A stretch of DNA of 64,000 nt from Pseudomonadota bacterium (GTDB lineage Bacteria; Pseudomonadota; Gammaproteobacteria; Burkholderiales; Burkholderiaceae_C). Location of the stretch: contig JAVHYA010000009.1 of assembly GCA_031119395.1 (NCBI GenBank), positions 27,098-91,097 of the forward strand, in the 5' to 3' direction. Positions 29,539-44,454 of the stretch are shown here, in pieces (positions within the stretch are counted from its first letter, which is position 1; the number at the start of each line of letters is the position of its first letter). The position numbers and the translations under genes were made by a program. The notes under the pieces are model-generated. The model was not told where the DNA came from. It was given only the letters and a program-made list of their open reading frames with translations, and ran no database searches.

Positions 29539-30462
29539 TCAGCCGGCCGCCATGTCGGGCAGCGCGCCCTTCGCTGCCGGCACCAGGATCCGCTGCACCG
29601 GCGGCGCTCCGGTGGCCGGCCGGGACGCCGGCCGGCCGCTGGCCACGCGCCGCACCCAGTCGCCGACCTCGTCCAGGAAGGTCTGCTGGCTCTGCAGCGA
29701 GGTCAGCGTGTGGTCGATCTCGCCGATGAAGCGGTATTCGAGCTGCCTGGCGAAGGGCTCGGCGGCCACGGGCCCGAGCTGGTCGCGCCCCAGGTCGCGC
29801 ACATGCAGCGTGCCGGTGTACATCACGAACACGGCCACGCCACGCTCGACCAGCTGCCGGACGGTATTGGTGAAGTAGCGCCGGGTTTCCTCGATCGGCT
29901 CGTCGTCGAAGAGCTGTGCCGAGGGCTGCTTGGGGCCCAGCTTGCGCCGCAGCCAGCGCCCGACCTTGCCGTACACCGAGGCATTGCCCGCCAGCGCCAG
30001 CATGCGGCGCAGGTTGCGCTCCATGCGCGCGCGCCGGCCGGGGAAGGCGTAGCTGTCGAACATGAAGAGCCCGACCACGCGCGGATCCACCTCCGCCAGC
30101 GACAGGCCGCGCCCGCCGCCCGAGCACAGGCCGATGACGATGAAGCGCTGGATGCCCAGCGTCGTCTCCAGCAGCTTCATGGCGGCCTGCAGGTCCAGCA
30201 CCGCCTGCTGCGTGAAGCGCTCCTGCCCCTTGGGGGCGCTGCTGTCGCCGAGCCCGGACAGGTCCATGCGCAGGCTGCTGATGCCGTGCTGCGCCAGGTG
30301 GCGCGCAAGCTTCACGTTGATGCGCCGCGGCCCGATGCGGTAGCCCGCTCCCATGTTCAGCATCAGGCACGCCACGGGCGCGGTGTCGCCGCTGGCGGGC
30401 GTGGTCACCATGCCCATCAGCGGGGCGTCTTCGGCGCCGAACAGAATCGGGAACTCTTTCAT
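29539..30462 (-). CDS. Alpha/beta-hydrolase (exosortase-system hydrolase-1-like)
   Basis: SLRMDLSGLGDS; elbow IGLCSGG; C-terminal EIDHTL. Confidence 0.8.
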   Translation of the reverse strand: MKEFPILFGAEDAPLMGMVTTPASGDTAPVACLMLNMGAGYRIGPRRINVKLARHLAQHGISSLRMDLSGLGDSSAPKGQERFTQQAVLDLQAAMKLLETTLGIQRFIVIGLCSGGGRGLSLAEVDPRVVGLFMFDSYAFPGRRARMERNLRRMLALAGNASVYGKVGRWLRRKLGPKQPSAQLFDDEPIEETRRYFTNTVRQLVERGVAVFVMYTGTLHVRDLGRDQLGPVAAEPFARQLEYRFIGEIDHTLTSLQSQQTFLDEVGDWVRRVASGRPASRPATGAPPVQRILVPAAKGALPDMAAG

Positions 30463-30504
30463 GTTTCGAATCCTCGTGGGCTTGGTGTGCGGCGGACGTC
30501 GGTT

Positions 30505-43000: not shown

Positions 43001-44454
43001 CGCTGGACGGACTGCTCGCGCATCAGCTGCAGCAAGGCCTGCGGATCGCGGCGCGTCGCTTCGTCGAGCAGCACCAGGGTGCCGCCCACCGACAGGGTCG
43101 CGAAGATCTCCTGGAAGGCGACGTCGAAACCCAGCGCGGCGAACTGCAGCGTGCGCTGCGGTGCGGGCACGCGCGGGTGCTTCGCCTGCCAGCGCAGCAG
43201 GTTGACCAGGCCGCGGTGCGGCATGGCCACGCCCTTGGGCTGGCCGGTCGAGCCGGAGGTGAAGATGACGTAGGCCAGGTGGTCCGGGCCGGGCCGCACC
43301 GCGGGCGGCAGCGCTTCGCCGGAGGGGGTGTCGGCCGCGTCGCCATCGAGCACGACCACCGGCGCATCGGAGGCCGGCAGCTGAGCGCGCAGCGCCGATT
43401 GCGTCAGCACCGCCGCAGGACGCGCGCCCTGAAGAATGAGCAGTGTGCGCTCGGGCGGGTGATGCGGGTCGAGCGGCACATAGGCGCCGCCCGCCTTGAG
43501 CACCGCCAGCAGGGCCACGACCATCTCCAGGCTGCGCTCCACATAGAGCGCCACCGGCACGTCAGGGCCGACGCCGAGGCGGCGCAGCTGCGTGGCCAGT
43601 GCCTGCGCGCGTGCATCGAGTTCGCCGTAGCTGAGGCTCTGCGTGCCCATCTGCACGGCGGTCGCCGCGGGCTGGCGCCGCACCTGTGATTCGACCAGCT
43701 CGTGCACCAGCGCGTCGCCGCCAAGATCCTCGGCGGTGGCGTTGAAGCGGTCGAGCAGCGCGCGCTCGGCCGGGCCCGCCAGCGGCAGGTCGCCGACGCG
43801 CACAGCGCCGTCCGCACACAGGCCGTCCAGCGCCTGCGACACGGCGCCGGCCCAGCGGGCGACCGCGGCGCCGTCGAAGCGCGACGGGTCGAAGGCCAGG
43901 ACCGCCGACCCGCCGGACTCGGGCAGGCGCAGTTCGATCGAGCCGGGCTGCGCCGCAACGCCGGAGGACGCCTCGCCCCACGCCAGCACGGCGGTCACGC
44001 CTTCGGCGGTGGCTTGCGTCGCTTCGGACGCGGCGGCGCCGGCGTGCTCCAGCGCATCGCGGCAGCGGGCCAGCCATTGGTCCACGGTGGGATCGTCGTC
44101 GAGCGAGGCGAGCAGCGTCGTCCGCACGCCGTCCCGGCGTCCATGGACAACGAAGGTGTCCTGGCCCGACAGGCGCCAGAGCACGAGTGCCCAGGCAGCC
44201 AGCCAGAGCGCAGCGTCTTGCGCCGGGCCCTGTGGGCGCCATGCGGCTGGCGGTGCAACGAGCTGCGTTGCCGGGGCCGGTGAACCCGGCGAAGCGTCGC
44301 GCGATCGGGGCGGCAGGTCGAGGGCGTGAGCGGCGCGGGCCAGGAGGGCGGCGGCGTCGCGGTCGGATGGCCCGCGACCTGACGTGGCGGGCTGGGCCAG
44401 CTGCACCTGTGCGGGCGACCCGGTGGTCGAACCTGCCGGCTCTTGCTTGTTCAT
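37048..44454 (-). CDS. Hybrid NRPS-PKS: (partial C)-A-T-KS-AT-ACP-class III aminotransferase
   Basis: YVIFTSGSTGQPKG; FFDLGGDSL; DPQQR, NTACSTSL, EAHGTAT, KSNVGH; GHSIG and HAFHS (malonyl-type AT); LGLDSL; IFDEVITGFR and TYGKVIGGG. Alternative starts at 44547 and 44601. Confidence 0.93.
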   Translation of the reverse strand: MNKQEPAGSTTGSPAQVQLAQPATSGRGPSDRDAAALLARAAHALDLPPRSRDASPGSPAPATQLVAPPAAWRPQGPAQDAALWLAAWALVLWRLSGQDTFVVHGRRDGVRTTLLASLDDDPTVDQWLARCRDALEHAGAAASEATQATAEGVTAVLAWGEASSGVAAQPGSIELRLPESGGSAVLAFDPSRFDGAAVARWAGAVSQALDGLCADGAVRVGDLPLAGPAERALLDRFNATAEDLGGDALVHELVESQVRRQPAATAVQMGTQSLSYGELDARAQALATQLRRLGVGPDVPVALYVERSLEMVVALLAVLKAGGAYVPLDPHHPPERTLLILQGARPAAVLTQSALRAQLPASDAPVVVLDGDAADTPSGEALPPAVRPGPDHLAYVIFTSGSTGQPKGVAMPHRGLVNLLRWQAKHPRVPAPQRTLQFAALGFDVAFQEIFATLSVGGTLVLLDEATRRDPQALLQLMREQSVQRLFLPFIALQNIAEYAAASGDPLPPLQDVMTAGEQLHASPAIRALFTRLPGCRLHNQYGPTESHVVTALTLAADPAAWEPLPTIGTPIANNRIHVLDPQGRELPIGAAGEIFIGGMGVARGYLHRPELTQERFVADRFAPGEGGRLYKTGDIGRWRADGEIEYLGRNDHQVKVRGFRVELGDIESALLQHPSVREAAVLAPRDGGGEARLVAYVSGHGTGPSRDMLRQHLQALLPPYMVPGQFVVLDAMPLSPNGKIDRRALPTPPAERPDIAQPFEEPRDEAEQRVCTAFARALGMDRVGRIDNFFDLGGDSLRVLKVIADLQAAAGRRLSTNLFFRDPTPAAIARELSGEPVAQAAPRAPRSAAIGSQEPIAIVGMAGRFPGAADVDAFWANLCAGRDGIRLFDDAQLDAGVSAALRDDPAYVRARGVIDGVEDFDAAFFGINPKEATLMDPQQRIFLEICWECLERAGYAPDQQTEPVGVYAGMYNGTYFQRHLMPRPELIDSVGEFTVMLGNEKDYLATRVANRLNLTGPAISLNTACSTSLVALAQAFHALRSGQCDMALAGGIAITCPPNSGYVHQEGAMLSPDGRTRSFDAQAGGTVFSDGAAVVLLKRLSDAQADGDVIYATVRGVGVNNDGAVKASFTAPSVDGQVAVISAALASAGVDARSISYVEAHGTATPMGDPVEVEALARSYAQQTADTGFCALGSVKSNVGHLLMAAGATGVIKTALALHTEQLPATLHFESPNPAIDFASTPFRVQSVLGAWPRTPDAPRRAGVSSFGVGGTNAHVILEEAPAVQPSEAVAGPQLLVLSARSPAALDQAAARLADHLRAHPDENLGDVAHTLYVGRKAFAHRLAVVADSAAQAVEALDDPASPRRVAGSVAPRAHAPVFLFPGQGAQYPGMGRTLYVHDEVVQAALDECFAAFAPLLPYDLREKMFGDDETALLPTSVTQPATFALEYALARRALAAGITPQALVGHSIGEFAAAVVAGVMSLADAALLVARRGEWMQALPAGRMLSVRCAAERLLPYLDASLALAADNAPNACVAAGPAEAIEALQARLEADGIASRALQTSHAFHSQMMEPAVAPFEALVRGIALSAPRIAIYSTSTGERLSDAQATDPGYWARHLRETVRFSPALRAALAASGQPLLLELGPRNTLSTLARQHALRGQPAPVALPCLAASPEDELVALRLAFGRAWTLGLAPDLGVFDARERKCRVCLPTTPFERKRHWVDMVSAPPAPLATPAPSIDIPLEPSMPTAPARRATLQAKLREVFEDISGTPMADADGATPFIDLGLDSLVLTQAALQVKKQFKTNISFRQLMEGCRSFDLLAEHLDNTLPPEPAAAAPAAPAAPVAQVAQGAAVPAPAAQAAVQPAPQAALTVLAPVALPAGAAAPLHQLIAQQMQLMQQQLALMAGGAAMPVQAVAQAAPAPATPEPAPASPVAATAQPAADEPVRGGVSYDVKKAFGAIARIHTAPNREITGRQQARLDAFVRRYVERTRKSKEFTAANRSHMADPRVVNGFRPATKEIVYQIVVDRSKGSRVWDIDGNEYVDTLNGFGMNMFGWQPDFINDAVRRQLDLGYEIGPQHPLAADVTRRICELTGFDRAALCNTGSEAVMAAIRIARTSTGRSTIVLFSGSYHGTFDEVLVRAGRGARGIPATPGVMSGMFGDVRVLDYGTPESLEFIREHADDLAAVLVEPVQSRRPDFQPKEFLHEVRAITEKSGTCLIFDEVITGFRSHPGGAQALFGIRADLSTYGKVIGGGMPIGAIAGKRVFMDALDGGAWNYGDDSIPVVGVTYFAGTFVRHPLALAAAKASLDHLASSGQALQAKLNTHTAAMADELTAFCREVGAPIEVRYFASLWRVSWLEDHPLQDLLFAMMRSRGVHILDNFPCFMTTAHTQQDIAVIKSAFKESVAELQEAEFIPRRAAAKPVFDAAHPPVPHARLGRDKDGQPAWFVPDPAAPGKFMKVEG

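Follow-up and report, generated by a model that had tools for sequence, protein, structure and literature searches.

Polyketide synthase (PKS) modules of the MycA type, which consist of ketosynthase (KS), acyltransferase (AT), acyl carrier protein (ACP) and aminotransferase (AMT) domains and lack a ketoreductase (KR), convert a beta-keto thioester into a beta-amino thioester. In MycA and ItuA, the proteins of mycosubtilin and iturin synthesis, such a module is supplied with a fatty acid by an acyl ligase and is followed by a condensation (C) domain that takes the beta-aminoacyl chain. In nonribosomal peptide synthetases (NRPS), modules that comprise a C domain and a carrier (T) domain but no adenylation (A) domain can be loaded by alpha/beta-fold shuttles with a cysteine nucleophile, such as SyrC and CmaE. 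A pair of alpha/beta-hydrolase-fold proteins, hydr2_PEP (TIGR03101) and hydr1_PEP (TIGR03100), occurs in exosortase-A loci; both are described by “hypoth_equivalog” models, that is, families of unknown function. The glidonin synthetase of Schlegelella brevitalea, a member of the Burkholderiales, ends in a C domain, a missing or truncated A domain, a T domain and two fused thioesterase (TE) units, each with a GXSXG serine (PMC10587159). Here, we compare with these systems the locus at positions 29539-44454 of the window, a stretch of 64,000 nucleotides (positions 27,098 to 91,097 of contig JAVHYA010000009.1, assembly GCA_031119395.1) from another member of the Burkholderiales, in which five genes encode an NRPS-PKS assembly line without a TE, and a pair of dissimilar hydrolase-fold proteins, hyd2 and hyd1, is predicted to release the product.

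Five genes of a beta-aminating assembly line

Genes in the window (~70% GC) were delineated by open reading frame (ORF) calling guided by the GC content of third codon positions (GC3) and annotated by comparison with Pfam and NCBIfam. The five co-directional genes, all on the minus strand, encode, in the order of transcription, (relic C)-A-T-KS-AT-ACP-AMT (geneA, 37048-44454, 2468 amino acids), C-A-T-C-T (geneB, 32036-37051, 1671 amino acids), an Sfp/HetI-type 4'-phosphopantetheinyl transferase (PPTase, 31314-32039, with a TTG start codon), and two alpha/beta-hydrolase-fold proteins, hyd2 (30505-31317, 270 amino acids) and hyd1 (29539-30462, 307 amino acids). In Pfam searches, geneA matched AMP-binding (2.8e-81), PP-binding, KS (2e-75), AT (6.4e-50), a second PP-binding and a class-III aminotransferase (2.3e-47); geneB matched Condensation twice (1.1e-161), AMP-binding (1.7e-86) and PP-binding twice; the PPTase matched ACPS and AASDHPPT_N, with an additional match to NCBIfam HetI (1.2e-31) that falls under the cut-off; and both hyd2 and hyd1 matched Hydrolase_4/Abhydrolase. 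The five packed genes and their domain order are thus those that the first-pass annotation, made by reading the nucleotide sequence and the translated ORFs, had described, including the ATGA overlap between geneA and geneB and the TTGA overlap between geneB and the PPTase gene. A further ATGA overlap joins the PPTase gene to hyd2, so that, with start and stop codons overlapping at three junctions, four genes appear to be translationally coupled; hyd1 starts 42 nucleotides past hyd2 and has its own ribosome-binding site. The same annotation listed neither KR nor dehydratase (DH), TE, reductase, exporter, TonB receptor or regulator, and our own inspection of the stretch bounded by the core genes likewise revealed no KR, DH, TE, reductase, TonB receptor, transporter or regulator. 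Specifically, there is no Pfam match to PF00975 (Thioesterase) anywhere in the five-gene unit, and the nucleophile elbows of the two hydrolase-fold proteins read GLCSG and GARLG.

The serines of all four carriers, the KS cysteine, the AT motifs, the lysine motif of the AMT that binds pyridoxal phosphate (PLP), and both HHxxxDG motifs are intact, and there are no stop codons over 15 kb. The assembly line is therefore real, intact and well delimited. A decaying or silent relic that makes no product could be suspected from the degenerate N-terminal C domain, the missing last A domain, the lack of a transporter and a regulator, and the existence of a genome of the same genus that has no such operon. 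Nevertheless, the preservation of all catalytic motifs, together with the conservation of gene order and chromosomal site across genera at 50-88% identity, the conserved promoter motifs, and the occurrence of words from this region in metatranscriptomes, makes a relic very improbable.

The loading domain A1 (42235-43692) is an amino-acid A domain, with a score of 439.9 bits against TIGR01733, above the cut-off. Its specificity code, which spans Asp235 to Lys517, is DVQFMAQVVK, a Pro-like code that agrees at 8 of 10 positions with DVQFIAHVVK, and the canonical Pro code is found at the A1 position in the related loci L028 and L029. Hence the prediction that the starter is proline or an analogue. 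The A2 domain of geneB (34133-35590) has the Gly-like code DMPQLGMVWK, with 8 of 10 positions identical to DILQLGMVWK; for both domains, the Stachelhaus codes extracted from alignments are identical to those previously read by hand. The N-terminal ~250 amino acids of geneA (43705-44454) contain no HHxxxDG and are poorly conserved among relatives; no Pfam match was obtained with the N-terminal 260 amino acids, and residues 188-234 weakly align (E 0.028) to the end of the first C domain of geneB (C1) and the C-A linker. This region looks like a dead relic of a condensation domain, and read in this way, it gives no reason to expect N-acylation of the starter.

Downstream of A1, geneA encodes the carrier T1 (41959-42150; GGDSL, Ser797), the KS (40762-41892; TACSTS with the catalytic cysteine, and HGTAT and VGH with the histidines), the AT (39490-40320; GHSIGE), in which the HAFH motif is present and indicates malonyl specificity as originally proposed, the ACP (38965-39192; LGLDSL, Ser1791), and a class-III PLP-dependent aminotransferase domain of the MycA type (37186-38487; YGKVIGGG with the PLP-binding lysine; PF00202, 2.3e-47). 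No Pfam match to KR, DH or enoylreductase (ER) was detected in the PKS module of geneA. The closest relative of the AMT with a solved structure is the AMT domain of MycA (6KFM; E 4e-123, 415 bits), followed at a considerable distance by glutamate-semialdehyde (GSA) aminomutases (~1e-55, ~190 bits). The AMT is 76-89% identical to those of close Xenophilus/Variovorax-type orthologues and about 50-68% identical to those of more distant relatives.

As in MycA and ItuA, the order is KS-AT-ACP-AMT, without a KR, and a C domain would take the beta-aminoacyl chain. In contrast to those systems, the starter is loaded by an NRPS A-T module and is an amino acid rather than a fatty acid delivered by an acyl ligase, the following C-A-T is located on a separate protein, and the line incorporates only two to three residues and has no TE. 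In the mechanism that we propose, A1 would load a proline-like amino acid on T1, and the KS would condense this starter with malonyl-ACP. Because the module lacks a KR, the beta-keto group would be transaminated on the carrier by the AMT domain and, because the starter is an alpha-amino acid and not a fatty acid, the outcome would be a beta,gamma-diamino acyl chain instead of a beta-amino fatty acid, namely, 3-amino-3-(pyrrolidin-2-yl)propanoyl-S-ACP. C1 (35642-36979; HHAVCDG, residue 158), predicted to accept the ACP-bound beta-aminoacyl donor, would then join the diaminoacyl chain to glycine on T2 (33854-34042; GGHSL, Ser1031). Our confidence in the steps up to T2 is high: the succession of an amino acid, malonyl extension, beta-amination and glycine, already put forward in the first-pass annotation, is backed by the A-domain codes, the HAFH motif and the relationship of the AMT to MycA.

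The hyd2-hyd1 pair and its proposed role in release

The two hydrolase-fold proteins had been regarded as two generic hydrolases, but they are not equivalent, and they are the feature that most distinguishes the locus. At the nucleophile position, hyd1 has a cysteine (Cys113, in the GLCSG elbow), accompanied by Asp136 and Asp250-His251, whereas hyd2 has an arginine (Arg110, in GARLG) and is a pseudo-enzyme. Among 150 representatives of hyd2 relatives (clustered at 50% identity), this position is occupied by Arg in 138, Gly in 11 and His in one, and never by Ser or Cys, which implies that hyd2 cannot form an acyl-enzyme or function as a hydrolase. In the alignment of 54 hyd1 homologues, Cys113 and His251 are each conserved in 51 sequences, Asp250 in all 54, and Asp136 is nearly invariant. 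The exceptions are three homologues with Arg in place of Cys113 and three in which His251 is missing (Gly in two, Gln in one); these sequences may represent paralogues, in clusters of their own, that have lost all activity. The AlphaFold2 (AF2) model of hyd1, built from the 54-sequence alignment (predicted local distance difference test score, pLDDT, 86.5), is an alpha/beta hydrolase with a helical cap. When this model was compared with known structures using Foldseek, the matches were generic Hydrolase_4 esterases and lipases, with template modeling (TM) scores of ~0.55, and, lower down, the fungal trans-acting PKS thioesterases DcsB and GrgF; a sequence search of the PDB with hyd1 yielded nothing close.

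The proteins of the exosortase-A pair are distant relatives of hyd2 and hyd1. The match of hyd2 to TIGR03101 (99 bits) is under the cut-off of 202.75, and the match of hyd1 to TIGR03100 (62.6 bits) is under the cut-off of 168.45. In a bona fide exosortase-A pair, that of locus L037, which scores above the cut-offs (243.7 and 317.5 bits), the genes follow in the same order, hyd2 and then hyd1, with the signatures GIRLG and GECDG; more generally, bona fide members contain GIRLG, GLRAG or GVRLG in hydr2 and GECDG or GLCDG in hydr1. Given the shared order and signatures, the combination of an arginine-bearing dead protein with a cysteine-bearing active one is ancestral to both groups, and both occur next to carrier-protein systems. 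However, the pair in the window follows the terminal T domain of an NRPS and is not part of an exosortase or exopolysaccharide (EPS) locus: neither the TIGR03098 ligase nor the decarboxylase of that setting is among the flanking genes (tilS, a DUF4136 gene and a histidine phosphatase gene at one end; orf153, miaB and glrK at the opposite end). We assign the pair in the window to a separate, NRPS-linked subfamily. In L037 (3902-9272; genome G195), the exosortase-A genes are preceded by a 101-amino-acid ORF and by genes resembling the fused E1 alpha/beta and the E2 components of 2-oxoacid dehydrogenases; the 101-amino-acid protein has no family match and contains an ACP-like IDSAGLL motif.

Counted as clusters at 50% identity, the NRPS-linked subfamily amounts to 340 at E<=1e-30; with limits of 1e-10 and 1e-3, the numbers rise to 4871 and 8580, and the exosortase-A type falls within the set of ~4,900 clusters. 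Full-length, closer matches (about 33-59% identity) were found in about 12 of 200 genera of the bacterial family, and about 2% of the sampled Pseudomonadota genomes match hyd2 at E<=1e-20. In 9 of the 12 loci retrieved from the family, and in one metagenome-assembled genome (MAG) of Acidobacteriota, hyd2-hyd1 lies directly 3' of a TE-less line that ends in a T domain. Furthermore, several natural fusions were identified, all with the expected elbows: A-T-hyd2 (P0260, P0301 and P0336), T-hyd2 (P0368), hyd2-hyd1 (P0380) and a tandem (hyd2-hyd1)x2 (P0377). These fusions place hyd2 in the position of a TE and tie hyd2 to hyd1. We read the pair as a release unit on the basis of these fusions, its place behind TE-less lines, the conserved Cys, His and Asp residues of hyd1, and the basic tail described below. 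With moderate to good confidence, we predict that hyd2 and hyd1 act in release on T3, the last carrier of geneB. Our confidence as to the chemistry of the release, hydrolysis or transfer, is low; in view of the cysteine nucleophile of hyd1 and the relatedness of the two proteins to those of exosortase-A loci, transfer of the chain to an amine or a glycan has to be considered seriously. A bolder and rather unlikely extension is that the pair represents a widespread, unrecognized carrier-protein off-loader that replaces the TE and, rather than hydrolysing the thioester, transfers the chain to an amine or to an envelope glycan or polymer, so that a vicinal-diamine peptide with strain-swapped residues would be grafted onto, or would cap, the acceptor.

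Loading and fate of the A-less terminal module

The last module of geneB consists of C2 (32474-33784), an elongation-type C domain without a cognate A domain, and the terminal carrier T3 (32132-32344; FFDLGGDSL, Ser1603), with a linker of ~60 amino acids in place of the A domain. The HHxxxDG motif that had been noted in the last C domain is indeed preserved (HHLVWDG, residue 1226), and the nearest relatives of C2 in the PDB are the elongation C domains of Txo2, PvdL and TycC. In the related locus L027 (G014), the architecture is C-A-T-C-A-T, with nearly the same code in A2 (DISQWGLVWK) and A3 (DITQWGLVWK), and in L031 (G008), an incomplete additional AMP-binding stretch separates C2 from T3. 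C2 itself aligns as a single set of orthologues, with common family-specific motifs, in lines that lack A3, retain a remnant of it or have it in full. Because L027 keeps a full A3 and L031 a truncated one, A3 was lost in the lineage of the window, and the A-less C-T module is a derived state. That a single A domain can serve several carriers is known from HMWP2 and from the ferrichrome synthetases of fungi. In our proposal, likewise, A2 probably also charges T3, adding a second glycine, and A3 would have become redundant before it was lost; we have moderate confidence in this part of the scheme.

The first-pass annotation raised another option, namely, that T3 is loaded in trans. T3 could be charged by an A domain from another locus, or else hyd1 could bring a substrate to T3 as a cysteine acyl shuttle; SyrC and CmaE, too, are cysteine-active alpha/beta-fold proteins that work on carrier thioesters beside an A-less C-T. 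However, hyd2-hyd1 keeps its position regardless of whether the final module contains an A domain, and the pair is equally present in L025, L027 and L028, where it does. Therefore, the pair does not compensate for the missing A domain and is unlikely to load the A-less carrier. No additional A-domain or carrier gene is found inside the unit, as bounded by the empty site described below, and we regard loading in trans as improbable.

Charging of T3 might also be dispensable altogether, in line with the external acceptor that the first-pass annotation named as its other option. In this case, C2 would join the chain on T2 to a free amine, for example putrescine, yielding a diaminoacyl-Gly-amine, while T3 would be structural, and the hydrolases would clear stalled intermediates. 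The precedent is the C13-A*-T13-TE1-TE2 termination module of glidonin, from another Burkholderiales strain, which works in this manner, and C-T di-domain termini have been linked to peptides with a C-terminal putrescine (PMC10587159). In C13, which functions in a VibH-like manner, Ser, Asp and Glu have been identified in the acceptor pocket for the diamine. The glidonin module resembles that of the window in its terminal C domain, the missing or truncated A domain, the T domain and the two hydrolase-fold units; nonetheless, its TE1 and TE2 are fused and use serines (PMC10587159), whereas hyd2 and hyd1 are separate proteins with Arg and Cys, and the relatives of our locus retain a full cognate A3. 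Amine capping would also be compatible with the independence of C2 identity from A2 specificity among the orthologues, and with an orphan C-A-T-C-T paralogue (P0072) that has no hydrolases or TE in its neighborhood. Against it stand the orthology of C2 with the C2 domains of lines that have a full cognate A3-T3, the fusion of hyd2 directly behind terminal T domains, where a TE would be expected, and the strong conservation of both T3 and the docking-like tail that follows it, which the orphan keeps as well. Across 115 homologues, each ~1670 amino acids long, the T3 serine motif is >98% invariant except at a single position (>90%). The cysteine and histidine of hyd1 are conserved beyond what an occasional proofreader would need, although this is not decisive. 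On balance, we consider amine capping possible but doubtful.

The tail in question is the basic C-terminal peptide of geneB, ...RKGLLGRMFGLGRR (32039-32089), which we put forward as a possible docking peptide for hyd2 and hyd1. A similar basic tail and a Pro/Ala-rich linker follow the terminal T domain in L004, L027, L028, L029, L031 and L033 and, less clearly, in L025; the tail is conserved in the Variovorax/Xenophilus homologues and is similar in A-containing and Acidobacteriota lines. From this distribution, we infer that RKGLLGRMFGLGRR might be the site at which hyd2 and hyd1 dock. The orphan paralogue P0072 of Variovorax sp. J22R133 (L038, 10001-14965), in which the A domain has the code DLFGVCGVFK, is encoded between gshB/BenE and kup/gshA, close to a TonB receptor and a PepSY gene; no PKS gene, hydrolase gene or TE was found nearby, and the basic C-terminal tail is retained. 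P0072 may rely, in trans, on hyd2 and hyd1 from the main operon.

In full, our preferred scheme continues from T2 as follows: A2 would charge T3 with a second glycine, C2 would move the chain onto T3, the hyd2-hyd1 pair would dock on T3 and the basic tail, and hyd1, by means of its Cys-His-Asp triad, would form a thioester intermediate and free the product, either hydrolytically or by passing it on to an acceptor. The product would probably be a small cationic peptide-polyketide hybrid, that is, a peptide with two amines. Several observations weigh against this scheme. The A1 code matches Pro at only 8 of 10 positions; A2 departs from the Gly-like type in some syntenic orthologues (X. azovorans has a Thr code, and J22R133 has DISDITGVWK); and the identity of C2 does not follow A2 specificity, which fits a constant acceptor equally well. 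Moreover, since the fold matches of hyd1 are generic, they do not separate a hydrolase from a transferase, and the support for expression is limited to k-mer shares of 0.24-0.30 in metatranscriptomes. Finally, the terminal C(-A*)-T of glidonin releases its product via free putrescine, with T being required only structurally (PMC10587159). Taken as a whole, from loading and beta-amination to the double use of A2 and release by the pair, the mechanism appears to us about equally balanced between being right and being wrong in some part.

A fixed chromosomal site with variable adenylation domains

The organism of the window is close to Xenophilus aerolatus (95-97% identity). The same five genes occupy the same site in Variovorax sp. 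PBL-H6 and J22R133, in X. azovorans and in a MAG labelled Janthinobacterium, flanked by folB-tilS-DUF4136-histidine phosphatase on one side and by the genes for a 150-amino-acid exported protein, miaB, glrK, glrR and opgH on the other. In a genome from the same GTDB genus, the site is empty (L042, G108:C1, 11416-12546, compared with 29003-45505 of the window): the phosphatase gene and orf153 are only 51 bp apart. This empty syntenic site shows the 15.4-kb operon to be a clean presence/absence polymorphism and delimits the unit to the five genes and a leader of ~400 bp, without a dedicated transporter, regulator or tailoring gene. Beside the more distant related loci, no shared accessory genes, such as transporters or tailoring enzymes, were detected. 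Among the loci sampled, genes of a polysaccharide type are neighbors only in L027 (a sugar transferase) and L024 (a flippase-like gene). In Variovorax, a gene pair for a resistance-nodulation-division (RND) pump is inserted between hyd1 and orf153; it remains where the operon is absent and, therefore, belongs to the flank rather than to the operon. The orf153 gene itself (29003-29464, minus strand), which encodes the 153-amino-acid exported protein between hyd1 and miaB, is conserved in position in the relatives; neither orf153 nor an upstream lipoprotein-like ORF has a Pfam family match.

Within this fixed site, the scaffold and the A domains differ in conservation. Identity to the window is 73-82% for KS, 83-89% for AMT, 55-61% for C2, 56-69% for T3 and 49-60% for hyd2. 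The A1 code is Pro-like in the window and in L009, that of Val (DALWLGGTFK) in PBL-H6, G180 and X. azovorans, and Thr-like in J22R133; the A2 code is Gly-like in the window, canonical Gly in L009, DISDITGVWK in J22R133 and the canonical Thr code (DFWNVGMVHK) in X. azovorans. In comparisons of L008, L009, L022, L039 and L040 with the window, the identity of A1 and A2 drops to ~41-48% wherever their codes differ. It looks, from these comparisons, as if A1 and A2 had been replaced inside a conserved scaffold.

The promoter/leader region between the histidine phosphatase gene and geneA (44455-44860, minus strand) has a GC content of 54%. It contains two motifs, each unique in the window, TTTAGTATTCATTTCTTACA (44716-44735) and the palindrome GCGCAACCAGTTGCGAC (44641-44657, minus strand). 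In the 9 orthologous loci from Xenophilus, Variovorax and the MAG, the GTATTCA core is invariant, and the CGCAAC..GTTGCG palindrome is present in most. Given their conservation in the orthologous leaders, GCGCAACCAGTTGCGAC and TTTAGTATTCATTTCTTACA probably serve as an operator and a promoter element; neither an Rfam family nor a sigma-70 consensus match was found in the leader, and a terminator scan of it gave nothing meaningful. The sole terminator-like hairpin downstream of hyd1 lies past orf153 (29012-28995). Of the words sampled from the ACP-AMT region, 24-30% recur in metatranscriptomes from soil and activated sludge, which is no more than a hint that relatives of the organism transcribe it.

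A siderophore was considered as the product and rejected: the unit contains no TonB receptor or exporter, and the A-domain codes are not of the hydroxamate or catechol type, although no search was aimed at a Fur box. The impression recorded in the first-pass annotation, that the locus is unlike the siderophore clusters of this family, is in line with this absence of a receptor, an exporter and chelating residues from the unit. In print, the Variovorax counterpart appears solely as an antiSMASH match of 21% to microsclerodermin (PMC10946135). The two share NRPS-PKS parts, including an aminotransferase-bearing PKS module, but microsclerodermin is made by a large, multi-module line, and is quite a different product. 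In the literature, we found no characterized counterpart or product of this operon family. The beta-aminating NRPS-PKS logic is known; the putative release module is unstudied, and the swapping of specificity at a fixed chromosomal site is unusual.

A dead hydrolase-fold adaptor together with a cysteine enzyme in place of a TE would be an uncharacterized way of ending an assembly line. Because the unit comprises only five genes within 15 kb, it should be easy to knock out or express. A related pair is present in thousands of exosortase-A loci in which its function is unknown, such that solving one system could explain both. The first part of the line is a predicted assembly-line route to vicinal (beta,gamma) diamino acids, which are metal-binding and polycationic, and have rarely been assigned to gene clusters. 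Variovorax and Xenophilus are common plant- and soil-associated bacteria that carry this operon at a fixed site of the core genome, and the apparent exchange of A domains at that site is the pattern expected of a molecule under diversifying selection, be it a signal, a public good or a weapon.

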